Part shown: positions 9,059 to 56,550 of the stretch, piece after piece | Numbering within the stretch: position 1 is the first letter of the stretch | Layout: the number at the start of each line of letters is the position of its first letter | Assembly: GCA_044360485.1 (NCBI GenBank) | Contig: JBIKKG010000001.1 | Coordinates: 1-60,735 of the forward strand | Source of the DNA: Burkholderiaceae bacterium | GTDB lineage: Bacteria; Pseudomonadota; Gammaproteobacteria; Burkholderiales; Burkholderiaceae_E | Direction: 5' to 3' | DNA: 60,735 nucleotides | Program-made: the position numbers and the translations under genes | Notes under the pieces: model-generated | What the model saw: only the letters and a program-made list of their open reading frames with translations | The model's database searches: none | What the model was told of the DNA's origin: nothing

Positions 9059-9394
9059 ATGACCCCGCTTGAGCCGTCGCCCGACGATGAAACCATCCCG
9101 ATGCTCACTGAGGTTCTGGAGATTCCAGTCTCCACGCCGGCATCCGCACCTGAAGCGGGGCTCGACCCGAGTGCAGAATGGGTCGAGCGCCTACGCGAGT
9201 CCGTCACAACTCAAGTCCTGCAACAGCTTGAAGACGCGATCGACATCGGGTTTCGCGCCGAACTGCAACGCGCGCTTCAAGATGCCGTGGATGATGCTTG
9301 CGACAGCCTGCAGTCCAGCCTCAACATCGCCTTGAAGCAGGCGGTGGCCCGCGCGGTGGACGAAGCCCTCTCGAACAGGCCCGCCCAACTATAA
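9059..9394 (+). CDS. Small acidic hypothetical protein
   Basis: Internal Met23 of track ORF 8993..9394, preceded by AGGAGAG. The 111-aa product is acidic and predicted helical, and I recognise no domain in it. Confidence 0.5.
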
Positions 9395-9429
9395 TCGCGG
9401 GCTTCGCTCATCTCCCCGAGGCTCCCCCC

Positions 9430-12400
9430 ATGAACGCCACGCCGACATCAGGCGCGCCGCATGCCGCTCTGGCCAAAAGCTTCGAGCCTGCCGACATCGA
9501 GGCGCGCTGGTACCCCCTGTGGGAATCGCGCGGCCTGTTCCGCAACCCGCAGACCCCGGCTGCGTCAGCACCCGCTTATTGCATTCAACTGCCGCCCCCC
9601 AATGTGACCGGCACTCTGCATATGGGACACGCGTTCCAGCAGACGCTGATGGACACCCTGATTCGCTGGCAGCGGATGAAAGGCTCGGACGTGAACTGGG
9701 TCGTCGGGACCGACCACGCGGGCATCGCTACACAAGTCGTGGTCGAGCGCCAACTGCAGGCTGAGGGCTTGACCCGCCACGATCTGGGCCGACAGGCGTT
9801 TCTGGACCGAGTGTGGACATGGCGCAAGCAGTCGGGCACCACGATCGTGGGTCAGATGCGTCGCATGGGCGCATCCGGCAACTGGGACTACGCGGACACC
9901 GACGGCGCGCGTGCCGGTTACTTCACGATGGATGCCCAGATGAGCCAGGCGGTGCTCGAGGTCTTCGTGCAGCTGCATGAACAAGGCCTGATCTACCGTG
10001 GCAAGCGACTGGTGAACTGGGATCCGACCCTGCAGACCGCTGTGTCGGATCTGGAGGTCGACAGTGAGGAAGAAGAGGGACGGATCTGGGATATCCGCTA
10101 TCCGCTGAACGGTGAGCCGCTCAATGTGACCCTGGAGGCCACCGAGACCGAACCCGCCCGCACGGTGGTGGTGGACGCGCTGGTGGTCTCGACCACCCGT
10201 CCGGAAACCATGCTGGGTGACACGGCAGTCGCCGTGAATCCGCGCGACCCACGCTATGCGCCGCTGGTGGGCCGCACGCTGCGTCTGCCGCTGTCCGACG
10301 ACGGACAGGGCGGGACACGCAGCATCCCGATCATTGCTGACGATTATGTCGATGCCGCTTTCGGCACCGGGTGCGTGAAAATCACCCCGGCGCATGATTT
10401 CAACGACTGGGCTGTGGGTGAGCGGCACGGCCTGGCCGCCATCAGCATCCTGACGCTTGACGCCAAGGTCTCAGACGCCGCGCCAGCGCCCTACCGCGGC
10501 CTGGATCGGTTCGAGGCCCGCAAGCGCGTGCTGGACGACCTGAAGGCGGTCGGCCTGCTGGTCAGCGAACGGCCGCACAAACTGATGGTGCCGCGTTCGG
10601 CGCGTACCAGCGTGGTGGTCGAGCCCATGCTCACCGACCAATGGTTTGTCGCGATGAGCAAACAGGACCACGGTAACCAGTACTTTCCCGGACGCTCGAT
10701 TGCTGATGTCTGTCTTCAGGTGGTTGACGACGGTCAGGTCCGTTTCGTGCCAGACCATTGGCGCAGCACCTATGATCACTGGCTGGGCAACATCCAAGAC
10801 TGGTGCATCTCGCGGCAACTCTGGTGGGGCCATCAGGTGCCGGCCTGGTACAAAGCCGATGCCCAGGGTGCACCGATTCACGATGGATCGGTTTTCGTCG
10901 CACGCGATGAAGCTCAGGCGCAGACTCAGGCTCGGGCCGCCGGATGGCATGGGCCGCTGATTCGCGACCCGGACGTTCTCGACACATGGTTTTCGTCAGC
11001 GCTGGTGCCGTTCTCGTCTTTGGGCTGGCCGAAAGCCACACCGGACCTCGAGCGCTATCTGCCGTCCTCGGTACTGGTGACTGGCTTTGACATCATCTTT
11101 TTCTGGGTCACCCGGATGGTGATGATGACCACATTCTTCACCGGCAAGGTGCCTTTCAAGGATGTCTACATCAATGCCATCGTGCGCGACGCCGAAGGCC
11201 AGAAGATGTCGAAGTCCAAGGGCAACACGATCGACCCGCTGGATCTGATCGACGGCATCACGCTCGATGCTTTGCTCGCAAAGTCCACCGTGGGTCTGCT
11301 GCGCGGAGATCACAAGGCGCGGATTGAAAAGCAGATCAGAAAGGCCTACCCGCAAGGCATTGCCGCCTACGGCGCCGACGCTGTGCGCTTTACTTTTGCT
11401 TCGCTGGCCACCTTTGCCCGCACGCTCAATTTCGATCTGGGGCGCTGCGAGGGCTATCGCAACTTCTGCAACAAGCTCTGGAATGCCACACGGTTTGTGC
11501 TCATGCAGACCGAAGGTCGGGACTGCGGCTTTGCGCCCCATACCGCCGAGCAGTGCGTTCCTGGCGGCTACCTGCACTTCAATCATGTGGACCGCTGGAT
11601 CACCAGCCGACTGCAGCGTACCGAAGCGACGATCGAACAGGCACTGACCGAATACCGCTTTGACCATGCAGCCCGCGAGCTCTACGAATTCGTCTGGAAC
11701 GAGTACTGTGACTGGTACCTCGAACTGGCCAAGGTCAACCTGGCATCGACCGATGAAGCCGTGCAGCGGGCAACCCGCCGCACACTGTTGCGGGTCCTCG
11801 AGACGATCCTGCGACTGGCCCATCCCATGATTCCGTTCATCACAGAGGAACTCTGGCAAAAGGTCGCGCCTCTCGCTCAGCGATACGGTGAGCGGGGTGT
11901 GCAAAGACTCCAAGGAGACGCCTTGAGCACGGCGCTCGAACAAGCGCAGTATTCAGTTTCCACACAGGCTTGGCCGACGAGCGAACCGGGCAAGATCGAT
12001 CCCACAAGCGAGGCAGCCGTCGCCGAGTTGCGCTTCATGATCGACGCCTGTCGCGCACTGCGAGGCGAAATGAACTTGTCTCCGGCACAACGCATGCCCC
12101 TGCTGATCGCTGGCCCAGCAGAACGGGCAGCGCTGCATGCGCCCTTCCTGCAGTCTCTTGCCAAACTGTCCGAAGTACAGGTGGTGAGTGCATTACCCGA
12201 AGACTCGCTTGCTCCAGTCCAGATCGTGGGGGACTTCAGGCTGATGCTGAAGATTGAGATCGATGTCACAGCCGAGCGCGAACGACTTGAACGGGAAATC
12301 ACCCGACTGCAAGGTGAGTCGGACAAAGCCCGGGCCAAGCTCGACAACGCATCGTTCGTTCAGCGCGCCCCTGCTGCGGTCGTCGATCAGGAGCGTGAGC

Positions 12401-39593: not shown

Positions 39594-39663
39594 GTTGTTT
39601 CAAGCCGTGTGGCGCTCTGCAGTTTCCGGTGGCGCCCACCGGCACAAAGCACGTTCGAGGCGC

Positions 39664-39691
39664 TTTGCCGTAGGTTAGCGGGTCGGTATAC
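39664..39691 (+). promoter_or_regulatory. Candidate sigma-70 promoter of the OmpA-family gene
   Basis: TTGCCG-16 nt-TATACT, located about 65 nt upstream of the ATG at 39756. Sequence pattern only. Confidence 0.35.
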
Positions 39692-39755
39692 TCCGTCGCA
39701 GCCGCTGCAAGGCGTTGATTTTTCAGATGTGAGTCATCTCACCGAGAGGAGAAAC

Positions 39756-40505
39756 ATGAAGAAATCGCTCAAGTTGGGAGCCCTCGTGGCCACTGGTCTG
39801 CTGGCTGCATGCGCGTCCACCAACCAGGACACTCCGAATATCAAAGCCGCTCCGAACCAGACTGGTTACATCCAGTCGCCGTTCGGCAACGTGGTCACTT
39901 CGCCGTTTGCAGAGCAGCCTGGCAGCCCGAAGGGTCTGTGCGTACGGTCGCCGTGGTGGCAGCCCGCCAACGCCCAGGTCGACTGTAATGCCGACCTGAT
40001 GCCGCGTTCGGCTCCCGCCCCGGTGGCGTCGCCGATGGCACCGCCGCCCGCTCGTCCGGCTCCGGCTCCGGTTCCGGTCGTCCCGGCTCCGGCTCCTGCA
40101 CCACGCCCGGCTCCGGCCCCTGTAGCGGCCCCGCGTCCGACCAGCGAAAAAGTCACCTTCGCAGCCGATGCGTTCTTCGACTTCGACAAAGCCACGCTGA
40201 AGCCGGAAGGCAAAGCCAAGCTCGACGACCTCGCCGGTAAGATCAAGGGCGTCACCCTTGAGGTCATCATCGCCGTGGGTCACACCGACAGCGTTGGTTC
40301 CGAGGCCTACAATCAGAAGCTGTCGCTGCGTCGTGCTGAAGCAGTCAAGGCTTACCTGGTGAGCAAAGGTATCGAAGCCAACCGCGTCTACACCGAAGGC
40401 AAAGGCACCAAGCAGCCGGTCGCCGACAACAAGACCACCGAAGGCCGCGCGAAGAACCGCCGCGTGGAGATCGAAGTGGTCGGTACACGCCCGGTCAAGA
40501 AGTAA
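39756..40505 (+). CDS. OmpA-family peptidoglycan-associated lipoprotein with Pro/Ala-rich linker
   Basis: Met50 of track ORF 39609..40505, preceded by GAGAGGAG. The lipobox is LLAAC|AS. The linker is PAPAPVPVVPAPAPAPRPAPAPVAAPRP. The C-terminal OmpA_C block is GHTDSVGSEAYNQKLSLRRAEAV...NRRVEIEV. Confidence 0.88.
   Translation: MKKSLKLGALVATGLLAACASTNQDTPNIKAAPNQTGYIQSPFGNVVTSPFAEQPGSPKGLCVRSPWWQPANAQVDCNADLMPRSAPAPVASPMAPPPARPAPAPVPVVPAPAPAPRPAPAPVAAPRPTSEKVTFAADAFFDFDKATLKPEGKAKLDDLAGKIKGVTLEVIIAVGHTDSVGSEAYNQKLSLRRAEAVKAYLVSKGIEANRVYTEGKGTKQPVADNKTTEGRAKNRRVEIEVVGTRPVKK
40055..40122 (+). repeat. Imperfect tandem CCGGCT/CCGGTT hexanucleotide tract encoding the (PA)n linker
   Basis: tccggctccggctccggttccggtcgtcccggctccggctcctgcaccacgcccggctccggcccctg, read directly from the sequence. 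Confidence 0.7.
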
Positions 40506-46116: not shown

Positions 46117-46484
46117 GGGGCCGACCTGGTTTCGACGTGGGTAGTGAAGCGTTTCAGTGCATGCCGAGGACTCTAGTGCCCTCGTAAATCCTTCTAGAAA
46201 ACTTCAAACGCCAACGACGAGCGTTTCGCTCTGGCCGCTTAAGGCCTAAGCCGCTGCACCGGGTTGCCGATGGCCCGGGTCCCGCAAGGGACTGCAGTGT
46301 CATTCACATCGGATCGTGCCTCGGTGGGCCGCTTATCGAGGAGCTAAAAAATAGGTGGCTGGTCGTTTCCTGAGCCTGCCGATCGGCATAGGCGACGACG
46401 AGAAAACTAAAGATCTGGCTAAGCATGTAGAGCGGTTACGTAGAAGACTTGCGGACGCGGGTTCGATTCCCGCCGGCTCCACCA
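46117..46484 (+). ncRNA. ssrA: tmRNA (SsrA), one-piece
   Basis: The 5' end is GGGGCCGACCTGGTTTCGACG. The tag reading frame at 46210-46242 is GCC AAC GAC GAG CGT TTC GCT CTG GCC GCT TAA, encoding ANDERFALAA*. The 3' tRNA-like end is GCGGGTTCGATTCCCGCCGGCTCCACCA. Confidence 0.95.
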
Positions 46485-46530
46485 TCAAACGCAAAGGGCT
46501 GCCCCGAAAGGGGTGGCCCTTTGCGTTTGA
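46485..46530 (+). terminator. Long hairpin immediately after ssrA (terminator-like)
   Basis: The arms TCAAACGCAAAGGGC (46485-46499) and GCCCTTTGCGTTTGA (46516-46530) enclose an inner CCCC-GAAA-GGGG hairpin. There is no clean trailing U-run beyond the T-rich 3' arm. Confidence 0.55.
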
Positions 46531-46663
46531 TCATGCGCCCAGCGAGAGAATCGAACCCGCGGGACGCGGGGCTCGAGCGGGGTTTCGGCGAGCACTGCTC
46601 GCCGCCGCGAGGGCGCGCCGGGCCTGCAGGCCCGTCGCCGGGAGATTCCTGCCGGCTCCACCA
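46531..46663 (+). repeat. Copy A of the structured GC-rich element plus a degenerate ssrA 3'-end repeat
   Basis: The core at 46548-46630 is about 96% identical to 48097-48178 (3 differences, counted by hand). It contains hairpins CCCGCG-GGA-CGCGGG, GGCGAGC-ACT-GCTCGCC and GGGCC-TGCA-GGCCC. It ends in GATTCCTGCCGGCTCCACCA. Confidence 0.75.
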
Positions 46664-46808
46664 TAAAAGCGAGATCCTGAGGTCGGACTATCTGAATGGC
46701 TCCGGCTAGTGACGATAAGCGGCCAGAACCAGTCATTCAGAAACGTCCGGTATCGGGTGGGCTGGCTGGCGGATCAGTGCTACAGGCGCTCGAGCAACCC
46801 GTGACGGG

Positions 46809-46847
46809 TTTACAATAGCGTTGAAAGTATCTACTATGTAGATACTT
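46809..46847 (+). promoter_or_regulatory. vapBC promoter with overlapping palindromic operator
   Basis: TTTACA (46809-46814)-17 nt-TACTAT (46832-46837). A perfect 10-bp inverted repeat, AAGTATCTAC-TAT-GTAGATACTT, lies at 46825-47. GGAGG sits upstream of the ATG at 46863. Confidence 0.5.
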
Positions 46848-46862
46848 AGTCTTGGAGGCACG

Positions 46863-47147
46863 ATGATGACCAAGCTAGCCCGGATTTTCTCGCACGGTGG
46901 CAGCCAAGCTGTGCGCCTGCCCGCCGAGTTCCGATTCACCGACATCGACGCCGTCTACGTGCGGCGCAACCTTGCTGGTGACGTGGTCCTTTCGCGACAT
47001 GCGCCGCAGCCGTACTCCACTTTCATGGCCACGCGCAACTCGCTCGGGGCACTTCCCGACACCTTTTTGTCGCCCAACGAGCGCGACCAGCGGACTGAAG
47101 ACCGCGACCCATTCACCGATTTCGGCGATGGTCGTCCGGAGCGCTGA
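46863..47147 (+). CDS. vapB: VapB-type antitoxin (AbrB/SpoVT-like DNA-binding fold)
   Basis: 94-aa protein. MMTKLARIFSHGGSQAVRLPAEFRFTDIDAVYVRRNLAGDVVLS matches the canonical VapB/MazE-fold N-terminus. The stop overlaps the vapC start (ATGA-type junction at 47147). Confidence 0.85.
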   Translation: MMTKLARIFSHGGSQAVRLPAEFRFTDIDAVYVRRNLAGDVVLSRHAPQPYSTFMATRNSLGALPDTFLSPNERDQRTEDRDPFTDFGDGRPER

Positions 47148-47560
47148 TGGCTTTGTACATGCTCGACACCAACGCTGTCAGCGCAGTCATGCGTGGCAAT
47201 CCGCTGATGGACGAGAGGCTCCTCCAACTAGACCAGGCAGATTGGTGCATATCGGCCGTAACGTATTCCGAGATCTGCTACGGGCTTTCATTGCGTCCCG
47301 AAGCGACAAATCTCATCCGCGCTGCAGATGCCTTTCTGGCGGTGGCGACCACCCTCGCCTGGGATGCAACTGCTGCCGCAGCACATGGCCGTCTGCGGGC
47401 GCAACTGCGCCAAGCTGGAACGCCAATTGGTGACTTTGACGAAATGATTGCTGCCCATGCAATGTCGGTCGGCGCGGTGCTGGTAACGAGCAACGAACGC
47501 CATTTCAGGCGAATTTCAGGATTGGCCGTCGAGAATTGGATCCGCGACTCAACCAGTTGA
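47147..47560 (+). CDS. vapC: VapC PIN-domain toxin (tRNA/rRNA endonuclease family)
   Basis: 137-aa protein. It begins YMLDTNAVSAV (first acidic PIN residue), then ISAVTYSEICYG, FDEMIAAHA and VLVTSNERHF, which are the remaining conserved acidic positions. Confidence 0.9.
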   Translation: MALYMLDTNAVSAVMRGNPLMDERLLQLDQADWCISAVTYSEICYGLSLRPEATNLIRAADAFLAVATTLAWDATAAAAHGRLRAQLRQAGTPIGDFDEMIAAHAMSVGAVLVTSNERHFRRISGLAVENWIRDSTS

Positions 47561-47643
47561 GCCAATCTGATACCACGTCCTTGGAGCGATCAGATGCCGC
47601 CCGTGAGGCTGTTATCGGCCAGAAGCGCTCGTTGGTGACCTGC

Positions 47644-48033
47644 TCAGAAGTTTCGATACCAGCCCGCCTTGGATGACCGGTTGACGGCGGACAACTTGAG
47701 CTCAGCTTTGGCTCGTCCCGGCCAAATGCTGTGACACGGTCGCCCGGAAACTCGTTTGTCAATGACTGGTTTCAAAGTGCAGCCGCCCTCGACCCACGGG
47801 CGCTCAAACGCGTGGACCAGCCTCTCGACTTGAAAGGTGCCTGCGACTGCAATGGGTCGGGATGAGCCCTTCCGCTCAAGGTTCAGCTGGATCGGAAAGG
47901 TGCGGAGATTGGCGGCCAGCGATGAGACCAGCGCAGGCGTAAGCAGCGTTCCGAAACCTTTCGCAAGGGCACTGCAGGTGTCAGCGTGGCCTGAACAGAG
48001 TGCGATTGATCCCGGGTGCGCACCCACCACCAT
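47644..48033 (-). other. Orphan 129-codon ORF of unknown function (possibly a gene fragment)
   Basis: Internal Met57 of track ORF 47644..48201. Third-position GC is moderately elevated by eye. The sequence (…RPIAVAGTFQVERLVHAFERPWVEGGCTLKPVIDKRV…) matches no family I recognise. The putative start lies inside the ssrA-like repeat. Confidence 0.2.
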
Positions 48034-48200
48034 CAAACGGAAACGCCTGCCCTGAAAGGGGCGGGCGTTTTTGTTTGATGGATGAATCTCGCGCGCGAAT
48101 CGAACCCGCGGGACGCGGGGCTCAAGCGGGTTTCGGCGAGCACTGCTCGCCGCCGCGAGGGCGCGCCGGGCCTGCAAGCTCGGCGATGCCGGCTCCAACA
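48027..48200 (+). repeat. Copy B: ssrA-3'-end fragment, terminator-like hairpin, structured element and a degenerate ssrA 3'-end repeat
   Basis: CCACCATCAAACG is followed by a hairpin with arms TCAAACGGAAACGCC (48033-47) and GGCGTTTTTGTTTGA (48064-78). The core lies at 48097-48178 and TGCCGGCTCCAACA at 48187-48200. The order is colinear with 46479-46663. Confidence 0.75.
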
Positions 48201-48207
48201 AAACCGG

Positions 48208-48834
48208 CTACTTGCGGCAGTCGGTCATGCAGCGGGCCACGCGCAGATCCGGCTCGTTGTCCCACGCGACGAAGCCGCCGCGGTTAGGCATTTTCACCTG
48301 CATCAGCGTCAGCGCGTCCAGCGACCCGTCCGCGCCGACGATGCCGTTCAGGTTCAGTAGGAAAGCGGTCAGCGCGTAGACCTCACCGGGCTCGAGGCTT
48401 TGCGGCCGGTCCCAAGGCATCGCGCGGTTGATGTAGTCGTACAGCGTGGTGGCGTGCGGCCAGAAGCTGCCGATGGTCAGGCTGGGCGCCTTCCCGGAGA
48501 GCGATCCGTGGCCACCCACCAGCGGCGCCGGCATCAGGCCACCCTGCCCCTTATCGCCGTGGCAGGCCGCGCACCGCTGCGCGAACAGAGACACGCCCTG
48601 AGCGACCGTGCCCGAGCCGGCGGGCAGGTTGCGCCCGTCCGGACCGATATCGATATTCCAGCCGCGCAGCTCGGCGTCGGTAGGCGCGCGGCCGATCGCA
48701 TAGCGGCCGACCGCGGACGCATCGGGCGGCGGGGGCGCGGACGAGCCGGTGGCGCAGGCGACCAGCACCGCGCAGACCGACAGCGGCGCGGCGAATGCAC
48801 GCAGACGACGGGGGCGGCATTCAGGCGAAGACAT
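48208..48834 (-). CDS. sorB: Sulfite dehydrogenase cytochrome c subunit (SorB-like)
   Basis: 208-aa protein with a signal/lipobox-like N-terminus (LSVCAVLVACATGS) and a single heme motif CAACHGDKGQGG. It overlaps the sorA stop by 14 nt. Confidence 0.78.
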   Translation of the reverse strand: MSSPECRPRRLRAFAAPLSVCAVLVACATGSSAPPPPDASAVGRYAIGRAPTDAELRGWNIDIGPDGRNLPAGSGTVAQGVSLFAQRCAACHGDKGQGGLMPAPLVGGHGSLSGKAPSLTIGSFWPHATTLYDYINRAMPWDRPQSLEPGEVYALTAFLLNLNGIVGADGSLDALTLMQVKMPNRGGFVAWDNEPDLRVARCMTDCRK

Positions 48835-50110
48835 GGGTCACCTCCCCGCTCGCAGCGACGCTCCAGCTCTGGATGCCGTTGTAGTGGTAGACCGAGTTCA
48901 GGCCGCGCGCCGCGATCAGCTGGTCGCGTGTGGGTTGAACGTAGCCGGTTTCGTCCCTTGCGCGGCTCTGCAGGATCGCTGGCGAGCCGTCCCAGGTCCA
49001 GGGAAGCCGGAATCGCGTGATCATCTTCGATTGCACCGGTTCCTGGAGCACTGCCTCGCGCCAGTTGCGCCCACCGTCTACCGACACGTCGACGCCTGCG
49101 ATCCGTCCGCGTCCGGTCCAGGCGATGCCCGAGATCTCGCGAAAGCCGCGCGGCCCCATCTGCTGGCCGCCCGAGGGCGACAGAATGACCGACTTCGCGT
49201 CCATCACGAAGGTGAACTGACGCGCGCTGCCGTCGGGCATCAAGTCGGTGTACTTGGATGTCTCCTCGCGCGTCTGGAAGGGCTCGATGCCGACCTTGAT
49301 CCGGCGCAGCCACTTAATGCTCATGTTGCCTTCGATGCCAGGCAGGAACAGGCGCAAAGGGTAGCCCTGCTCGGCCCGCAGCATCTCACCGTTCTGCGAC
49401 CACACCACCATCGCATCGCGCAGCGCGATGTCCATTGGAATACTGCGCGTCATCGCGGCGGCGTCTGCGCCCTCGGCGAGCAGCCACTTCGCTTCGGGCT
49501 GCAGGCCCACTTCGCCCAGCAGCGTCGACAACATCACGCCGGTCCACTCGGCGCCGGCGATCAGGCCGTGCACGTCCTGCGCCGTCCTGCCGATCGGGGC
49601 TTTCCACTGCGAAGCGCTGTTGCCCGAGCATTCGAGGAAGTGCACCCGCGAAACCGCCGGAAAGCGCATCAGCTCATCCATCGTCAGCAGCAGCGGGCGC
49701 GACACCAGGCCGTGGATCATCAGCCGGTGCTGCGCCGGGTCGATCTGCGGCACACCGGCGTGGTGGATTTCGAAGAACAGCCCGTTCGGCGTGATCGTGC
49801 CGTGGAGATTTTGGATCGGCGTGCGCGAAAAGAGGGGAAACGGATTATTCCCGGCTGGCAGTGCGCGGACCACGTGCTGCTCGTGCAGCGAGGGCAGTCC
49901 GTAGGGCGGGTTGAGGAAACCGGTGCCCTGCTCGCGCATCCACTTCGGCACGCGCGGCGGCGGCTCGCCCAGCGCGCTGCGGCTGGTGAAACCGAGCCCC
50001 GCGCCGGCCGCTATCGCAGGCGCAGCCGCAACGCGGCCGAGCAGCGCACGGCGCGCACCGCTCGCGGGCCGCGGTCGTGCTTCGAGATCGTCATCGTCGC
50101 TGTCTGCCAT
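48821..50110 (-). CDS. sorA: Sulfite dehydrogenase molybdopterin subunit (SorA-like, sulfite oxidase family), Tat-exported
   Basis: Met25 of track ORF 48821..50182. The Tat signal is SGARRALLGRVAAAPAIAAGAGLG. The Mo-ligand Cys block is VHFLECSGNSA, and a C-terminal dimerisation domain is present. Confidence 0.85.
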   Translation of the reverse strand: MADSDDDDLEARPRPASGARRALLGRVAAAPAIAAGAGLGFTSRSALGEPPPRVPKWMREQGTGFLNPPYGLPSLHEQHVVRALPAGNNPFPLFSRTPIQNLHGTITPNGLFFEIHHAGVPQIDPAQHRLMIHGLVSRPLLLTMDELMRFPAVSRVHFLECSGNSASQWKAPIGRTAQDVHGLIAGAEWTGVMLSTLLGEVGLQPEAKWLLAEGADAAAMTRSIPMDIALRDAMVVWSQNGEMLRAEQGYPLRLFLPGIEGNMSIKWLRRIKVGIEPFQTREETSKYTDLMPDGSARQFTFVMDAKSVILSPSGGQQMGPRGFREISGIAWTGRGRIAGVDVSVDGGRNWREAVLQEPVQSKMITRFRLPWTWDGSPAILQSRARDETGYVQPTRDQLIAARGLNSVYHYNGIQSWSVAASGEVTHVFA

Positions 50111-50190
50111 GCTTCGGTGCGCGTGCTCGAAAACCAGCCAACCAGCAGCATAGCCGAGTGGGTGCTCGATACCTGCCACCACGCGCGTTG

Positions 50191-50358
50191 AACAGAACTG
50201 CGTTCCTGCTGGCGGCCGGTGGCTTTACGCCCTTGTTCGGCAGGATTTTCGAACTGTTCGGACGCAAACTCGTCTATCTGATTGGCTTCTCTCTGTTCGG
50301 GGTATCGAGCCTGCTGTGCAGCCTGTCGTTCGACGTCACGAGTCTGCTCGCCTTTCGC
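50191..50358 (+). pseudogene. Fragment of an MFS (DHA2/EmrB-like) transporter gene
   Basis: Within track ORF 50077..50439, NRTAFLLAAGGFTPLFGRIFELFGRKLVYLIGFSLFGVSSLLCSLSFDVTSLLAFR corresponds to MFS TM2 - motif A (GRxxDxxGRK) - TM3 only. No N-terminus or remaining TM segments are present in any frame. Confidence 0.5.
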
Positions 50359-50527
50359 CCGAGGCAGGCAGGGCAGGCACACAGCATCGGCGCCTTGATC
50401 GGACTGGTCGTTGCCCGGTTGCTGCGCGAGAAAGACTGAACAGGAGAGGCTTCGTCATCTGTGCGCAGGCGGGCCGTGAACATCCGCAGGCAGGGACAGC
50501 GACCTTGGCCAAGTCCCCGCATGCGCC

Positions 50528-52297
50528 TCAGATGGTGATGACCAACTGGTTCAAGTCCAGCACCCGCCTGTACTCGATCTTGCGTGCGATCAGGTTGGCC
50601 ATCACGCGCTCCGACAGGCTTTCCGGTTCGTCGTGCCGAATTTCCGTCTCGCGCAGCGGGTTGTGAATGACACCGTCATCACGTATGAGCATGACCAGGC
50701 CATCGGCTGTACGCCGGATCATCAGGTCGATATTGACGCTGCCCTTGGCATTCGCATTGGCCTTGAGGATGTCGACCGACAGGTCTTCGGCCAGCATGCT
50801 CGCCTTGTAGGCCAGCCAGGAGTCGGGAACCGAATCTTCCAGGAAGCGATGCAGGTAAGCCGAGACCTGCGCGCTGTTCTCGGTGGTGCACACATACGAC
50901 AGCGTCTTCAGCTCGTTGGGCTCGCGCTCGGGCAGCAGCCACAGGTCGGCGAACAGCCCACCCGATGCCTTGCGCATCCAATGAAGAACGGGAATCGCGA
51001 TGAGCAGTGCCAGATAGCTCTGGGCTGCCAGCGCAATCCAGATACTCTCGACACCGAAATACGTACCGAGCACAGGAAGGATCGGGATGATGAGCGCACC
51101 TTGCAGCACCGACAACAGCATGGCCGCCCGGTGCTGGTTCACGGCAATGTAGTACTGGATTGCGTTTTTCAGCAGGCACAGTGCAGGAAACGAAAGCGCC
51201 GTGATGCTCACCGCGAGCGTAGAGATCTGCGTATCGGCTGAGCCTTGGATGCCGTACAGCAGCAACACCGACTGCGGCCAGACCAGGAGCAGCGCCACGA
51301 TGGCCGCACTGATGGCCAGCAGCAGCACCGACGAGTGCCGTGTGAGGATGCGCAGGCCTGCGTAGTCCTTTTCGCCGTGCAGCATGCCCCCCATCATCAG
51401 GATGCTGGTGCCCGCACTGATGATGAACAGGTAGACGATGTTCTCGCAGGTGTTGAACAACGAGAAGGCGACCAGGCCGGCACTGCCGGCTTGCATGAAG
51501 ATCACCTTGTTGAGCACGGCGGTCTTGGCGTACTCGAGAAACGAGCCTACCGACAGAGGGAAACCCGACTTGAGCATCTCCAGCAGGTAATTGCGGACGA
51601 AAGCCAGGTCGGTCAGCGCCGCGAAGCGCAGGCGCACCGTCGCGCGCCCGCCCAGTGCATGGGTTGCCATGATCATGAAGCCCAGCACCTGGCTGACGAT
51701 GCTGGCCACCGACAGCCCCAACATCCCCATGTCCAGTTTGAGGAACACGACAGCAAAGGCGGCGTTCAGGATGTAGGTGACGATGGCGATGGTGGAGAAG
51801 AATTTCGGCCTGCCGTCCAGCCTCCATCCCTTTTCGAAAGCCTCGGATACCGCGAGCAGCGGCGCGCTGAGCAGGAAGGGGATGTAGTACTCCAGCGCCA
51901 AGCCCAACAGGCGCGCATCGTCGGCGAAATAGGCCAGCAGCGCCTCGGCGAAAAAGAACTGAGGCAAGAAGACGATCGCCTTGACGCACACCAGCACCAC
52001 GAGAAAGAGCGTGAAGACACCATGCACCTCAGTGGGTTCGGATTCGGCGCTGCACCGCGCCAGGATCGCGAAGACACCGCCGCCGATGATGCGCGACAGG
52101 ATGAATGACAAGCCGACCAGCGGACTGATGAGCACCAGCGCCGACAGCGCATCGGGTCCGAGAAAGTGCCCCGCCAGGATGGAGTCGGTCAGCAGGATGA
52201 CACTGCCCACCAGTGACGACACGACCGACGGGAAGTAGAGCTCCTTGTACTTCCGGGTCAGCAGCACCCCGCTGCGTTGATAGTTCGTGGTCGTCAT
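50528..52297 (-). CDS. MATE/MOP-like 12-TM transporter fused to a C-terminal GHKL (RsbW/SpoIIAB-type HATPase)-like domain
   Basis: Track ORF 50528..52384, with the start placed at Met30 (52297; Met15 at 52342 is possible). About 440 aa of MATE-like TM helices begin LYFPSVVSSLVGSVILLTDSILAGHFLGPDALSAL. A roughly 150-aa soluble tail follows: ..AYKASMLAEDLSVDILKANANAKGSVNIDLMIRRTADGLVMLIRDDGVIHNPL... Confidence 0.75.
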   Translation of the reverse strand: MTTTNYQRSGVLLTRKYKELYFPSVVSSLVGSVILLTDSILAGHFLGPDALSALVLISPLVGLSFILSRIIGGGVFAILARCSAESEPTEVHGVFTLFLVVLVCVKAIVFLPQFFFAEALLAYFADDARLLGLALEYYIPFLLSAPLLAVSEAFEKGWRLDGRPKFFSTIAIVTYILNAAFAVVFLKLDMGMLGLSVASIVSQVLGFMIMATHALGGRATVRLRFAALTDLAFVRNYLLEMLKSGFPLSVGSFLEYAKTAVLNKVIFMQAGSAGLVAFSLFNTCENIVYLFIISAGTSILMMGGMLHGEKDYAGLRILTRHSSVLLLAISAAIVALLLVWPQSVLLLYGIQGSADTQISTLAVSITALSFPALCLLKNAIQYYIAVNQHRAAMLLSVLQGALIIPILPVLGTYFGVESIWIALAAQSYLALLIAIPVLHWMRKASGGLFADLWLLPEREPNELKTLSYVCTTENSAQVSAYLHRFLEDSVPDSWLAYKASMLAEDLSVDILKANANAKGSVNIDLMIRRTADGLVMLIRDDGVIHNPLRETEIRHDEPESLSERVMANLIARKIEYRRVLDLNQLVITI

Positions 52298-52367
52298 CTC
52301 GAGAGTTCTTCTTGTTCGCCCTGGCACGTGCGTTGCGGTCATCGCAGCGTGAAAGCTGACCTGGCAT

Positions 52368-52393
52368 GCGCAGGACGATCGCATGTCCTGCGC
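52368..52393. promoter_or_regulatory. Perfect 9-bp inverted repeat in the divergent MATE/murT intergenic region (candidate operator or RNA hairpin)
   Basis: GCGCAGGAC-GATCGCAT-GTCCTGCGC. An overlapping alternative pairing is CATGCG...CGCATG (52365-52384). Confidence 0.3.
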
Positions 52394-52507
52394 GGCGACA
52401 CCGCTGGGGCCCCACCTGCATCCGCGACACGCGGGGAGCCAAGTCGAGGTGACTCAAACGTGCATGCTATCCTGAACTGCACGGTTTGAACCAACACGCT
52501 CTCTGCC

Positions 52508-53845
52508 GTGAGGGCCACCGAGATCCGGCGTCTTGCTGTCTCGCATGCCCCCCTCGCGTGTCCCTTTTCTCCAAGCCCTGTCGATGAGGCGCAACCTGCC
52601 GACCACGCCCGTCTCCACAGCGACCAGGGCACGGCCTTGCTGAGCCCTCTGCGTACACGCTCGGCGGTACTGGCAGGGCGTTTTGTGGGGCACGCCTATC
52701 GCCTGTCCGGGCGCGGCGGCGATGGTGCGAGCACCCGCGGCCGCGCGATGCTCGCAGTCGATCCGAACGCCTTGCACACGCTGGCCCAAGGCCGGCGCAC
52801 CGTGATGATCACAGGCACCAACGGTAAGACCACCACAACCCACCTGGCGGTGGCCGCCCTGGGTCAGGCTGCCACCAATGCCTCGGGCGCGAACATGCCC
52901 AGCGGCATCGTCGCCGCGTATGCCGAGTCTGAGCATCCGAACGCAATCATCGAGGTCGACGAGCTCTACATCGATATCGTCGCCCGTCAGGTCAAGCCGG
53001 TGGCCATCGTTGCGCTCAACCTGCTTCGCGATCAGCTCGACCGCATGCACGAGGTCGCGCGCATCGGCCGCCGCTGGCAGCAGGCCTTTCGCGCCGCGGG
53101 AGCACTCGTCATTGCCAACCCGGCCGATCCCCATGTGGCGTATGCCGCCATGGCTGTGGACCACCTGTGGTTCGACCCGGGGCTGCGCTGGACCGACGAT
53201 TCGGCCACCTGCCCACGCTGCGGTTCGCTGGTCCACTGGCGTGTCCGGCGCTGGGCGTGCACGTGTGGTCTGACCATGCCTGCGCCCGACGCCTGGGTCG
53301 ACGACGACGGACTGCACTTCGCTGACGGGGCCTGCCAGCCCTTCAGCCTGAAGCTGCCGGGCGCGGTGAACCGTGGCAATGCGGGTGCGGCGCTGCTTGC
53401 CGCTCGCGTGCTGGGCGCGCCCCTGGCGCAGGCTGCCGAACGGCTGGCCGATATGCGCAGCGCCAGCGGACGCTACGCGTCGATTCGAGTGGGCGGCCGC
53501 ATGGCCAGGCTCGTGCTGGCAAAGAACCCGGCGAGCTGGATCGCGGTCATGCAGTGGGCGGCCGACCATCCGATCATCGCGATCGTCAACGCCCGGGCTG
53601 CGGACGGCCGCGACACCTCGTGGCTTTACGACGTGCCGTTCGAGGTCTTCCAGGGCCGCGCCCTGGGCGCTTGCGGCGAGCGTGCAGCAGACGTCGCGCT
53701 GCGCTTGCATGTAGCCGGGGTGCGCGCCATCGTGGGTGCCGATCTCGACCACGTTGCACGCCAGATGCCCGCCGGAGAACTTCACGTGCTGGCCTCCTAC
53801 TCAGCCTTCACCCTGTTGCGGCGGCAGGCCGTGGAGGCGCCGTGA
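52508..53845 (+). CDS. murT: MurT-like Mur-ligase-family protein (lipid II isoglutaminyl synthase ligase subunit type)
   Basis: Blocks read from the translation are GTNGKTTT (P-loop), SGANM, EVDE, NLLRDQLDRMHEV, the Cys4 ribbon CPRCGSLVHW..CTCG, LAKNPAS and DGRDTSWLYDVPFE (DUF1727 part). All are colinear with staphylococcal MurT as I remember it. The start is uncertain: GTG 52508, or TTG 52637 giving MLSPLRTRSAVLAG. Confidence 0.85.
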   Translation: MRATEIRRLAVSHAPLACPFSPSPVDEAQPADHARLHSDQGTALLSPLRTRSAVLAGRFVGHAYRLSGRGGDGASTRGRAMLAVDPNALHTLAQGRRTVMITGTNGKTTTTHLAVAALGQAATNASGANMPSGIVAAYAESEHPNAIIEVDELYIDIVARQVKPVAIVALNLLRDQLDRMHEVARIGRRWQQAFRAAGALVIANPADPHVAYAAMAVDHLWFDPGLRWTDDSATCPRCGSLVHWRVRRWACTCGLTMPAPDAWVDDDGLHFADGACQPFSLKLPGAVNRGNAGAALLAARVLGAPLAQAAERLADMRSASGRYASIRVGGRMARLVLAKNPASWIAVMQWAADHPIIAIVNARAADGRDTSWLYDVPFEVFQGRALGACGERAADVALRLHVAGVRAIVGADLDHVARQMPAGELHVLASYSAFTLLRRQAVEAP

Positions 53846-54603
53846 ACGCGATCCGCGTGATCGAGGTCTATCCTCAGTTGCTGGGCACCTACGCCGATCG
53901 CGGCAATGCGCTGGCGCTCAGGCAACGCGCTGGCGCGCGCGGACTGCGCGTGGACCTGCATGTCGTGAGGCCGGGCGAGTCGGTACCACTGGATGGCGAT
54001 CTCTACCTGCTGGGCGGCGGCGAAGATGCCGCACAGGCGCTGGCCGCCTCGATGCTGCAAACCGATGGGGGACTGGCGCGCGCCGTCGAACGCGGGCGCA
54101 CGGTGCTGGCGGTGTGTGCCGGCATGCAGATTCTGGGCACCACCTTCGTCGGACCAGATGGCGCCGTGCTCACCGGCCTGGGTCTGGTCGACGCCGAGGC
54201 CACCGCGTTGGTGAGCAGGGCCACCGGCGACATCGTGACCCGCGCGCAACTCGATGGGGAGGCGCTGACACTGGTGGGGTTCGAGAACCACCGCATCGGC
54301 AGCCGGTTGGGCAGCGCCTGCCGCCCCCTGGGCCGGGTGGAGCGCGGCAGGGGCAATCACGACACCGATGGGACCGAGGGTCTGGTGCAGGGATCCATCG
54401 TCGCAACGTATCTCCACGGTCCGCTGCTGGCTCTCAATCCACAGCTGGCCGACGTACTGCTGCGGCGAGTGGCCGGCGCGCTGCCCGCGCTCGACACGGC
54501 GCACGACGACTGGGCCCATACCGCCCGCGCGGTGCGACTGCGCGAAGGCAACGCGGGCGGTCTGCGCCGCCTTGCAGGCCTGCTGCGCGTGCGCCAGCGC
54601 TAG
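53842..54603 (+). CDS. gatD: GatD-like glutamine amidotransferase (CobB/CobQ-type GATase; MurT partner)
   Basis: GTG at codon 97 of track ORF 53554..54603, overlapping the murT stop (GTGA). The protein begins VNAIRVIEVYPQLLGTYADRGNALALRQRA. The catalytic Cys is in LAVCAGMQILG, GFENH is present, and the catalytic His is in TYLHGPLL. Confidence 0.85.
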   Translation: MNAIRVIEVYPQLLGTYADRGNALALRQRAGARGLRVDLHVVRPGESVPLDGDLYLLGGGEDAAQALAASMLQTDGGLARAVERGRTVLAVCAGMQILGTTFVGPDGAVLTGLGLVDAEATALVSRATGDIVTRAQLDGEALTLVGFENHRIGSRLGSACRPLGRVERGRGNHDTDGTEGLVQGSIVATYLHGPLLALNPQLADVLLRRVAGALPALDTAHDDWAHTARAVRLREGNAGGLRRLAGLLRVRQR

Positions 54604-54612
54604 GCCCCGATC

Positions 54613-56550
54613 ATGTGCGGGCTGCTGGGCATCCTGTGCGCAACGCCTGAACAGGCGCGCCAGTTGCTCGCGCCGGCGCGCAACGCGCTGCAGATCCAGC
54701 GCCATCGCGGCCCCGACGAGACCGATATCCAGATGTTCGACGAGGCGGTGCTCGGTTTGAACCGGCTGGCACTCGTCGACGTCGATCATGCGCACCAGCC
54801 GCTGCTGTGGGGCCCACCCGAGGCGCCGCGTCGGTACGCACTGCTGTTCAACGGCGAGATCTACAACCACCAGGAGCTGCGCGACGAGCTCACCGCCACG
54901 CACGGGGCGGCATTCGCCACGCTCGGCGACGGCGAGGCCATCGTCGCGGCCTACCACCACCACGGAGCCGAGTCCGTTTCCCGACTGCGGGGCATGTTCG
55001 CCTTCGTGATCTGGGATACCCGTGACAAGGTCCTTTTCGGTGCACGCGACCCCTTCGGCATCAAGCCCCTGTACTGGGCGGCAGGCCCTGGCGGCGTGGC
55101 CTTCTCGAGCGAGAAAAAGAGCCTGCTGGCTCTGGCGCCCGCACTGGGCGTGGGCCTGGCTCTGGACCCCGCAGCGCTGCAGCACTATCTCGCGCTGCAG
55201 TACGTGCCCGAGCCCGAGACGCTGCACGCAGCCGTGCGCCGCATCGAATCGGGGACCTGGTTGCGCGTCACGCCCGGGGGTGAGCTGCATGTGCAGCGCT
55301 ATTTCCTGCCCCGATTCGAGAGCAAGGCGACACTCAGCGCCCCATCAGCCGATGCCCTTCACCGCAGGATCGCCGATGCACTGCGCGACTCGGTTCGCGC
55401 GCACATGGTCGCCGACCCGGGAATCAGCGTCGGCACTTTCCTGTCGGGGGGCATCGACTCCACCGCCATCGCCGTCCTCGCCAAGGAGTTCAAGCCAGAC
55501 CTGGTCGCGTTCACAGTCGGATTCAAGACCCCAGGCTATTCGGAGATCGACGTCGCGAGCCAGACGGCGGAGGTACTCGGGATCGAACACGTAGTGCGCA
55601 CGGTCGACGTGAGCGAGGTGATGCAGGCGCTGCCGATGATCATCTGGGCCCTCGACGATCCACTGGCCGACCCGTCGCTGGTCCCGCTGTACTTCGTCGC
55701 GCGCGAGGCCAGCAGCCGCGTCAAGGCGGTGCTGTCTGGCGAGGGAGCGGATGAGCTGTTCGCGGGCTACCCGATCTACGGCGAGGGCGTATCGCTCGCG
55801 CCCTTCGAGAAGGTACCCAGTGTGATCCGCACCCTCATGGGTCGGGTGTCAACCATGCTGCCCGACGGGATGCGCGGCAAGGACCTGCTTCGTCGCGGTG
55901 CGCTGCGTCTCGAGCAGCGGTATTACGGCAATGCGCGCATCTTCCTGGACGACCCGATGCGCGGCGTGCTGCGCAGCTTCCGGGAAGGCGTCAGCCACGA
56001 GGACGTCACCGCCCCCTGGTATCGACATTCACAGGCTTGGGACCCCATCTCGCGGATGCAGCACATCGACCTGTTCACCTGGCTGCGAGGCAACATCCTC
56101 GCCAAGGCCGACAAGATGACGATGGCCCACTCACTGGAATTGCGCGTGCCGTTCCTGGATGCCGCCGTGCTGCAGGCCGCCTGTGAAGTTCCCGCTGATC
56201 AGAAGATCGCCGGTGGCACCACCAAGTTCGCGCTGCGTCGTGCCCTGCAGGGCCTGGTGCCCCCGCATGTGCTCGAGCGCGAGAAGCTGGGCTTTCCGGT
56301 GCCGATCCGCCAGTGGCTGCGCAACGAGATGCACGACTGGGCCCGAGGTATCGTGGCCGAGTCCGCAACCGATCGGTGGCTGGACAAGGGTGCAGTCTTG
56401 CGCATGCTCGAGGCGCACTACCGTGGTCAGGCCGACCACAGCCGGCGTCTGTGGGCTTTACTGTGCTTCATGATCTGGCATGGCATCTTCATCGAGGGTC
56501 GCATCGCACCCGATGTGCCATGCTCGGTGCCAACGGCTTCGCGATACTGA
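54613..56550 (+). CDS. asnB: Glutamine-hydrolysing asparagine synthase family amidotransferase (AsnB/LtsA type)
   Basis: 645-aa protein. The N-terminal nucleophile is in MCGLLGI, the PP-loop is FLSGGIDSTAIA, and the SGEGADELFAGY and LELRVPFLD blocks are present. Confidence 0.9.
   Translation: MCGLLGILCATPEQARQLLAPARNALQIQRHRGPDETDIQMFDEAVLGLNRLALVDVDHAHQPLLWGPPEAPRRYALLFNGEIYNHQELRDELTATHGAAFATLGDGEAIVAAYHHHGAESVSRLRGMFAFVIWDTRDKVLFGARDPFGIKPLYWAAGPGGVAFSSEKKSLLALAPALGVGLALDPAALQHYLALQYVPEPETLHAAVRRIESGTWLRVTPGGELHVQRYFLPRFESKATLSAPSADALHRRIADALRDSVRAHMVADPGISVGTFLSGGIDSTAIAVLAKEFKPDLVAFTVGFKTPGYSEIDVASQTAEVLGIEHVVRTVDVSEVMQALPMIIWALDDPLADPSLVPLYFVAREASSRVKAVLSGEGADELFAGYPIYGEGVSLAPFEKVPSVIRTLMGRVSTMLPDGMRGKDLLRRGALRLEQRYYGNARIFLDDPMRGVLRSFREGVSHEDVTAPWYRHSQAWDPISRMQHIDLFTWLRGNILAKADKMTMAHSLELRVPFLDAAVLQAACEVPADQKIAGGTTKFALRRALQGLVPPHVLEREKLGFPVPIRQWLRNEMHDWARGIVAESATDRWLDKGAVLRMLEAHYRGQADHSRRLWALLCFMIWHGIFIEGRIAPDVPCSVPTASRY

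Follow-up and report, generated by a model that had tools for sequence, protein, structure and literature searches.

Introduction

To our knowledge, the peptidoglycan (PG) of proteobacteria is generally taken to be non-amidated. The PG of Escherichia coli "is known not to be amidated" (PMC11189452), and reviews place the action of MurT/GatD, the lipid II isoglutaminyl synthase, in Gram-positive cells (PMC12632261). Acetobacteraceae amidate the L-centre of meso-diaminopimelate (mDAP), which reportedly protects from the DD-endopeptidases of type VI secretion systems (T6SS) by reducing cleavage and dampens the innate immune response (Espaillat et al. 2016, as summarised in PMC6127315). The PG of cyanobacteria is amidated, and the cyanobacterial DD-peptidase PBP-A is specific for stem peptides that contain D-iso-glutamine (D-iGln) (PMC11189452); furthermore, in Pseudomonas aeruginosa, Gln has been observed at position 2 in trace amounts (PMC9239049). 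We searched the literature for MurT/GatD in Proteobacteria or Burkholderiales and retrieved no pertinent report. Here we analyze the first 60,735 nucleotides (nt) of contig JBIKKG010000001.1 of a Burkholderiaceae bacterium (GenBank assembly GCA_044360485.1; this whole stretch is hereinafter the window), which carry a compact 3.9-kb gene trio, murT-gatD-asnB, at 52637-56550. We consider it probable that a Burkholderiales lineage acquired both systems for stem-peptide amidation from Actinobacteria, combined in one operon that amidates the D-iso-glutamate (D-iGlu) as well as the mDAP of lipid II.

Gene layout

The original prediction, made from the letters of the window without database searches, described three co-directional genes, with a GTGA overlap of the first two and a 9-nt gap before the third. 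The list of open reading frames (ORFs) bears this out position by position, all three ORFs being intact:

52637..53845, + strand: murT, Mur-ligase-like subunit of lipid II isoglutaminyl synthase, 402 amino acids (aa), TTG start (Pfam, PDB alignment, neighbor-joining (NJ) tree)
53842..54603, + strand: gatD, glutaminase subunit, 253 aa (Pfam GATase_3, alignment with Staphylococcus aureus GatD)
54613..56550, + strand: asnB, LtsA-type Ntn amidotransferase, predicted mDAP epsilon-carboxyl amidotransferase, 645 aa (Pfam, NCBIfam, identity, synteny)

The GTG start of gatD at 53842 falls within the murT stop (GTGA), so that the two genes overlap by 4 nt, and a 9-nt spacer separates the gatD stop (54603) from the asnB start (54613). 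The murT ORF in full spans 52508-53845. We placed the start at 52637, yielding 402 aa, on the basis of gene callers and an alignment of four variants (relatives 85-97% identical); the start codon is TTG in the window compared to ATG in the relatives, and some gene callers give an alternative length of 386 aa.

MurT and GatD

Searches with hidden Markov models recovered every domain that the original prediction led us to expect: MurT_C/DUF1727 (PF08353; 60.3 bits at E=2.2e-16, well over the cut-off of 25, with 1-109 of the 110 profile positions covered) and Mur_ligase_M (27.1 bits against a cut-off of 24) in the murT product, GATase_3 (PF07685; E=3.6e-30) in the gatD product, and Asn_synthase in the asnB product. 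The motifs that it had named (GTNGKTTT, CPRCG..CTCG, DGRDTSWLYD, VCAGMQ, YLHGP, MCGLLG, and SGGIDS) are likewise all present, with alignment to functional residues of the solved MurT/GatD complexes.

MurT aligns with the solved structures 6FQB, 6GS2, and 7Q8E (E=1e-34 to 4e-32) at ~30% identity, over nearly the full length in the case of the Streptococcus pneumoniae protein (6FQB) and over most of the length in the case of the S. aureus protein (6GS2/7Q8E). In these alignments, GTNGKTTT coincides with the P-loop of 6FQB and 6GS2, the NxxRDQxDRxxE motif is kept, and the Cys4 ribbon CPRCG...CTCG matches CPDC...C..CG in S. pneumoniae and CPNCG...CQCG in S. aureus. Within the AADGRDTSW block, the window sequence AADGRDTSWLYD is aligned with AADGRDTSWIYD of S. 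aureus, in which D349 is, by counting along the alignment, the D of GRDTSW; we take this residue to be the Asp that completes the catalytic triad of GatD. The gatD product, in turn, matches S. aureus GatD (5N9M/6GS2) with E=4e-37, and its VCAGMQ, SRATGD, and YLHGP motifs face ICGGYQ (C94), NRLTGD (R128), and YLHGP (H189), where C94 and H189 presumably are the catalytic residues and R128 the glutamine-binding one.

AsnB

The asnB product combines GATase_7 (E=3e-36) and GATase_6 with Asn_synthase (E=2e-100), and carries the N-terminal MCG nucleophile (MCGLLG) along with the PP-loop FLSGGIDS. It also reaches 427 bits, where 267 are required, with the NCBIfam model TIGR01536 (asn_synth_AEB), as would an ordinary asparagine synthetase linked by chance to a MurT/GatD pair that alone modifies PG. 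The alignment with E. coli AsnB (1CT9) speaks against such a reading. Residues 392-495 of the window protein (104 aa) face E. coli residues 363-384 (22 aa), which amounts to ~82 extra residues in the substrate-binding region; moreover, E. coli C385 is aligned with L496, so that I495 and K498 occupy the positions of D384 and R387, the presumed Asp-binding residues. The AsnB homologs that amidate mDAP are marked by the absence of the Asp-binding D and R and by an extra loop in the substrate region (Sun et al., PMC8554201), and both features are found in the window protein. In favor of the synthetase reading, the AsnB of Bacillus subtilis has been reported to be promiscuous (PMC8554201).

The closest named relatives of the window AsnB argue in the opposite direction, being syntenic genes that are probably of the LtsA/Rv2201 type. 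The protein is 64-69% identical to AsnB of Pseudonocardiaceae; the organism-named sequences among the top 120 matches are all actinobacterial, mostly from Amycolatopsis and other Pseudonocardiaceae; and around the gene of Amycolatopsis the order is qcrC, ctaE, trpD, ctaF, ctaC, asnB, pfkB, ..., cobT. The order ctaC-asnB-pfkB/adoK is probably that of the neighborhoods of Mycobacterium tuberculosis Rv2201 (Rv2200c-Rv2201-Rv2202c, within Rv2192c-Rv2207) and Corynebacterium glutamicum ltsA. Considering also the close translational coupling of asnB to gatD, we regard an asparagine synthetase that joined the locus by chance as quite improbable.

The closest AsnB outside the shared block described below (74% identity) is encoded on a 9.7-kb contig with 75% G+C (GC) content (L090, 940-6059) from which murT-gatD is absent. 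This asnB directly adjoins the gene upstream, which encodes an MFS_3 permease with a fused cNMP-binding domain, and is followed by an Acatn-type MFS gene.

Phylogenetic origin of the trio

After relatives at 88-96% identity, the next best matches of the window MurT are only 50-52% identical. Three of these come from contigs with 72-75% GC that share the order DUF3263, LytR_C, CSD, murT, gatD, followed by DNA_pol_A in two cases and by a truncated unassigned gene in the third; this context is actinobacterial, as indicated by the F420-dependent, Rv2632c-like, and MptA/GT87 genes nearby. The named matches belong to Kineosporiaceae, Actinosynnema, Pseudonocardiaceae, and Frankiales, and identity to the MurT proteins of Firmicutes, Chloroflexi, and Vampirovibrionales is limited to 25-33%. 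In an NJ tree of 51 sequences, all of 100 bootstraps nest the window MurT clade within the actinobacterial one and none places it outside, and its sister lies in a single uncultured, high-GC, Actinomycetales-like subclade in 87 of 100; among the members of this subclade is one with the annotation of an Actinomycetales metagenome-assembled genome (MAG).

By Pfam, by the NJ tree and by structure alignment alike, the first protein of the trio thus belongs within the MurT clade, with DUF1727 and the Cys4 ribbon in place, and the actinobacterial type that had been assigned to all three proteins from the sequence alone is supported by homology, catalytic residues, phylogeny, and synteny. These findings support ultimate acquisition of the trio from Actinobacteria, probably by horizontal transfer. 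In the actinobacterial loci examined, the two amidation systems are unlinked. Our survey covered ~160 other murT loci (80 from genomes and 80 from metagenomes, with flanks stored up to 10 kb where the contig allowed), and neither AsnB nor the MATE transporter considered below was found near any of these within the stored flanks. A scan of metagenome contigs for further contexts yielded no trio, the MurT loci found there being at most 45% identical over the full length, along with one 133-residue fragment at 50%.

The sister MurT subclade (364-366 aa; contigs with 66-69% GC) displays a neighborhood of its own. On L099 (532-4762) and L101 (10001-13308), murT-gatD lies beside genes for a DUF218 protein and a class-A beta-lactamase-like protein (Beta-lactamase2), and ABC exporters flank these gene groups. 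Given that PBP-A, a cyanobacterial relative of class-A beta-lactamases, is specific for D-iGln (PMC11189452), these neighbors may be wall enzymes tuned to amidated PG. A gammaproteobacterial (Arenicellales) origin of the sister clade was considered and rejected as a clustering artefact. The suggestion arose from a 90%-identity cluster that joined the 725-aa ABC transporter of L099 (4763-6940) with an unrelated 54-aa representative from Arenicellales/Gammaproteobacteria; blastp detects no real similarity between this transporter and the 54-aa proteins of the cluster, and both the 66-69% GC of L099 and L101 and the member named Actinomycetales further contradict such an origin.

The mobile block

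The trio is part of a larger unit that is shared between otherwise different chromosomal contexts:

50384..56550, no strand: shared block comprising the 3' tail of an MFS gene, a MATE gene, and murT-gatD-asnB, 6.17 kb (blastn and boundary alignments)
50528..52297, - strand: highly divergent MATE-family transporter with a C-terminal HATPase_c_2-like (GHKL) domain of ~135 aa, 589 aa (Pfam MatE, E=1e-18)
52298..52636, no strand: MATE-murT intergenic region, presumed promoter region (four variants aligned, 84% mean column identity)
50200..50439, + strand: truncated MFS transporter gene (ORF 50077-50439), of which the last ~56 nt, coding for ...SIGALIGLVVARLLREKD and the stop, lie in the shared block and the upstream part is window-specific

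In blastn searches, two contigs, L010 from a Methylibium MAG and L001 from ENA, share with the window solely the stretch 50384-56550, at 96.0-96.1% identity. The right edge of this identity is the stop codon of asnB, and the left edge lies inside the last ~56 nt of the MFS gene. On the 12.7-kb L010 contig, pepN, fbp, and a tRNA-Thr(CGT) gene (2704-2779) are followed, after ~330 bp, by the block and then directly by a DUF772 (IS5-type) transposase gene (9143-9859); no integrase was seen on this contig. In the window, the block comes after soxDC and the truncated MFS gene, 2.2 kb past an ssrA-associated islet. No terminal repeats were found around the block. The two different flanking contexts imply that the block has changed its chromosomal position within the lineage. 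Since only the MFS tail is shared with L010, the ancestral block probably contained this MFS gene in full, in convergent orientation to the MATE gene.

Horizontal acquisition is therefore borne out more strongly than the original prediction had argued: the genes nest within actinobacterial clades, and the block occupies two chromosomal sites in related bacteria. The unit of acquisition had to be redrawn, given that it also includes the divergently transcribed MATE gene. With regard to the island context, the ssrA remnant, with vapBC between direct repeats, and the MFS fragment are both real; the block itself lies outside the repeat-bounded islet.

Searches against PLSDB did not support plasmid carriage, which we reject on these records: of the 26 records with MurT homologs, the 25 listed all come from Actinobacteria or Firmicutes, without a proteobacterial one among them, and at the DNA level the greater part of the block is not covered by any record, the listed matches being partial ones to asnB or to the murT-gatD region. 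We likewise reject a known anti-phage defence system as the identity of the block, none of its four proteins having a match in PADLOC-DB at E<=0.01.

For murT, gatD, asnB, and the MATE gene, the ratio of nonsynonymous to synonymous substitution rates (dN/dS) is 0.14-0.22 at dS of up to ~0.4, as estimated by comparing the window with the 96% variant and, except in the case of asnB, with 85% variants from other samples, and the reading frames are intact in all fully covered variants. The block genes are thus maintained under purifying selection. This observation bears directly on the notion that the trio is a silent or barely expressed passenger that has no effect on the wall. Such a notion could draw on the TTG start of murT in the window and on the MATE-murT intergenic region, in which no sigma-70 consensus match was detected (no Rfam element or riboswitch was found in the block either). 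Against it stand the dN/dS values and the intact frames, as well as the recurrence of the trio proteins on dozens of metagenome contigs, and we see little prospect of the passenger explanation being correct.

The MATE gene

The MATE protein is close to being an orphan: it has relatives at 80-97% identity, beyond which identity drops to only ~23%; the dN/dS of its gene is 0.21-0.22. The C-terminal domain (50531-50935) contains invariant E...N and D-G motifs. The domain is common to 46 representative clusters, about half of which consist of 570-600-aa proteins with the domain at the C-terminus, and three of those that we checked are MATE fusions. Stand-alone and distant homologs of the domain match Pfam HATPase_c_2 (GHKL of the RsbW/SpoIIAB type); the isolated domain of the window protein itself gave no match in Pfam. 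In the AlphaFold model, the membrane domain is acceptable and the C-terminal domain has low predicted local distance difference test (pLDDT) values of 33-66. The fusion of a transporter with a GHKL domain is an unusual architecture. The closest of the distant MATE-GHKL relatives, with 23% identity over the full length, is encoded on L097 (388-3822; 34.5% GC, a low-GC Firmicute with a SpoIIM gene), 10 nt after the gene for a 564-aa ATP-grasp ligase, which hints that this MATE subfamily may associate with enzymes that form amide bonds.

The enzymes of the trio could conceivably have been recruited to another substrate, either a muropeptide from recycling or release, or a peptide or polyanionic metabolite destined for amidation and subsequent export through the MATE protein. 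This possibility draws on the co-inheritance of the MATE gene in the 6.17-kb block under purifying selection, on the position directly after an ATP-grasp ligase that is seen in the sole distant relatives of the MATE subfamily whose context is readable, on the ~50% divergence of MurT from its closest known relative, and on the accessory and mobile nature of the block, outside the dcw cluster. It has to be set against the conservation of every residue tied to the mechanism of lipid II isoglutaminyl synthase, the 64-69% identity of AsnB to housekeeping orthologs of the LtsA type, the divergent transcription of the MATE gene, which places it outside the operon, and the composition of the block, which contains no biosynthetic genes for any other substrate. 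On balance, we consider recruitment to another substrate unlikely.

Host and genomic context

In addition to the block, the window encodes gyrA, alaS, valS, soxCD, an OmpA-family lipoprotein, an AsmA/DUF748 protein, and a tmRNA (tag ANDERFALAA). The proteins flanking the trio fall in 90%-identity clusters with NCBI entries named 'Burkholderiales bacterium', and the host is an uncultured freshwater Burkholderiales bacterium. In a scan of one genome per species across 185,579 species, the sole close genomic relative is the lake MAG 'uncultured Methylibium sp.', with a 97% identical MurT; the scan employed peptide patterns derived from the query, so that divergent proteobacterial MurT genes may escape it.

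The window is a metagenome contig, and the whole-gene GC of the trio (0.66-0.71) exceeds that of the window (~0.62), two circumstances that might suggest a chimeric assembly or actinobacterial contamination joined to a proteobacterial contig. The gene order soxD, soxC, MATE, murT, gatD, asnB, EamA, EamA, AHSA1 was, nevertheless, assembled independently in four ENA and JGI samples, which effectively refutes a chimera. This is reinforced by the second context found in the MAG and in another ENA contig, by an identity of at most 69% to any actinobacterial DNA, and by the clustering of the flanking genes with proteins of Burkholderiales MAGs. The GC content at third codon positions (GC3) points the same way, being 0.81-0.83 in the trio and 0.82-0.84 in the neighboring soxC, MATE, and EamA genes, compared to 0.74-0.76 in the distant core genes gyrA, alaS, and valS. 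An assembly error of this kind is thus hardly credible.

The same values qualify the original claim that the locus is richer in GC than the housekeeping genes: the trio indeed exceeds the window average and the distant core genes, whereas its GC3 is the same as in the adjacent soxC, MATE, and EamA genes. We accordingly discarded GC3 as a sign of foreignness. Because GC3 matches that of the neighbors, we attribute the higher overall GC of the trio to the amino-acid composition of its products, the genes otherwise fitting their surroundings in composition; combined with the ~50% and ~66% identity to the nearest donors, this suggests an old acquisition followed by recent local movement.

Two features lie upstream of the block. 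The tmRNA gene occupies 46117-46484, and a segment of ~160 bp, 46479-46637, is repeated at 48027-48185 with 83-95% identity; these direct repeats bracket a vapB-like/vapC (PIN) pair (46863-47560), and a further copy of the ssrA 3' end is present at 46644-46668. The region 46117-48185 looks like the scar of an ssrA-integrated element. Between this islet and the block, on the - strand (48208-50110), lie genes for a soxD-like cytochrome c and for soxC (sulfite/sulfane dehydrogenase; TIGR04555, 599 bits). The GC3 of soxC (0.84) matches the block and not the core genes, suggesting that a compositionally distinct region may span ~48.2-58.7 kb.

Discussion

The proteins described here are new members of known families, namely MurT, GatD, and the LtsA-type AsnB; the interest of the locus lies in its proteobacterial host, the fused operon, and its mobility. 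Under the reading that we favor, GatD would hydrolyze glutamine and MurT would use ATP to activate the alpha-carboxyl of D-iGlu on lipid II, with the MurT Asp completing the Cys-His triad of GatD and D-iGln as the expected product. The AsnB/LtsA-type enzyme, through its N-terminal Cys glutaminase and its PP-loop adenylating domain, would amidate the epsilon-carboxyl of mDAP on this precursor as well. We would expect a Gram-negative sacculus with one or both negative charges missing from some or all of its stems. The trio is carried, along with the MATE gene, in a 6.2-kb block that has changed its chromosomal site. What we say of the substrate, of amidation in the living cell, and of any advantage (for instance against PG-targeting enzymes) is prediction. 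The PG of the donors is of the mDAP type (A1-gamma), like that of proteobacteria, so that the acquired enzymes would meet their native substrate. Furthermore, the fusion of both systems into one recipient operon provides independent genomic support for a shared substrate, and is the result to be expected if a common function was selected for.

Several observations weigh against this proposal. Both proteins of the synthase fall far below the cut-offs of the NCBIfam equivalogs, MurT with 125.5 and 121.1 bits against 800 (NF052464 and NF045635) and GatD with 136 and 112 bits against 450 and 400. The best NCBIfam models for the two proteins are still the two MurT and the two GatD equivalogs, and all of them fall short alike; we read the low scores as probably reflecting divergence from the model seeds rather than exclusion from the MurT family. 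The nearest known MurT is only ~50% identical, which makes a shift of substrate possible. The amidation pathway as known does not involve a MATE exporter like the one inherited alongside the trio. Finally, an OmpA-family lipoprotein with a Pro/Ala-rich linker, encoded in the window at 39609-40505 (+), keeps the canonical HTDxxG/LSxRRA motif (GHTDSVG ... LSLRRA), which binds the free carboxylate of DAP. Since this motif is kept, complete amidation of mDAP would be expected to disturb outer-membrane anchoring, and partial or conditional amidation is suggested instead.

If the operon is active, the host would be the first proteobacterium known to us that is predicted to amidate D-iGlu and mDAP by actinobacterial machinery, and would represent a natural experiment in how a diderm copes with a charge-neutralised wall. 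Possible consequences concern anchoring by OmpA, Pal, and Lpp, the LD- and DD-transpeptidases, recycling, and the way in which lytic enzymes and innate immune receptors recognize the wall. More speculatively, and with considerable doubt on our part, the block could be a mobile cassette of 'cell-wall armour', in which amidation of both carboxylates makes the sacculus a poor substrate for the PG-directed weapons that competitors, predators, and phages deploy (T6SS amidases and endopeptidases, lysozymes, and endolysins, for example) and the MATE-GHKL protein serves specifically to export, flip, or sense the modified precursor. If so, it would amount to a transferable, immunity-protein-independent defence based on PG chemistry.

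Comparison with described systems delineates what is shared and what sets the locus apart. The lipid II isoglutaminyl synthases of S. aureus (SA1708/SA1707; PDB 6GS2/6H5E/7Q8E), S. pneumoniae (6FQB), and M. tuberculosis (Rv3712/Rv3713) resemble the window pair in forming an overlapping two-gene operon and in combining a Mur-ligase middle domain with MurT_C, the Cys4 ribbon, the triad Asp, and the Cys, His, and Arg of GatD. The closest relatives of the window pair are the actinobacterial enzymes, which act on PG of the mDAP type. Unlike these systems, the window pair resides in a diderm betaproteobacterium, is accessory and mobile instead of core, and is fused with asnB in one operon; the window MurT also differs from the known ones in being ~50% identical at best and in scoring under the NCBIfam equivalog cut-offs. 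[quoted passage not shown] In contrast to the actinobacterial gene, which lies next to ctaC and far from murT-gatD, the window asnB follows gatD after 9 nt, in a proteobacterium.

Among diderms, the Acetobacteraceae offer a Gram-negative precedent for stem-peptide amidation as predicted for the window host. They differ in the carboxyl that is modified (the alpha carboxyl, at the L-centre of mDAP) and in that amidation is a trait of the whole family rather than of a mobile cassette. The MurT homologs of the diderm Vampirovibrionales are 28-30% identical to the window protein, are not linked to asnB, and are not proteobacterial. The cyanobacteria, for their part, demonstrate that a diderm envelope is compatible with D-iGlu-amidated PG (PMC11189452), which is the condition predicted for the host of the window.

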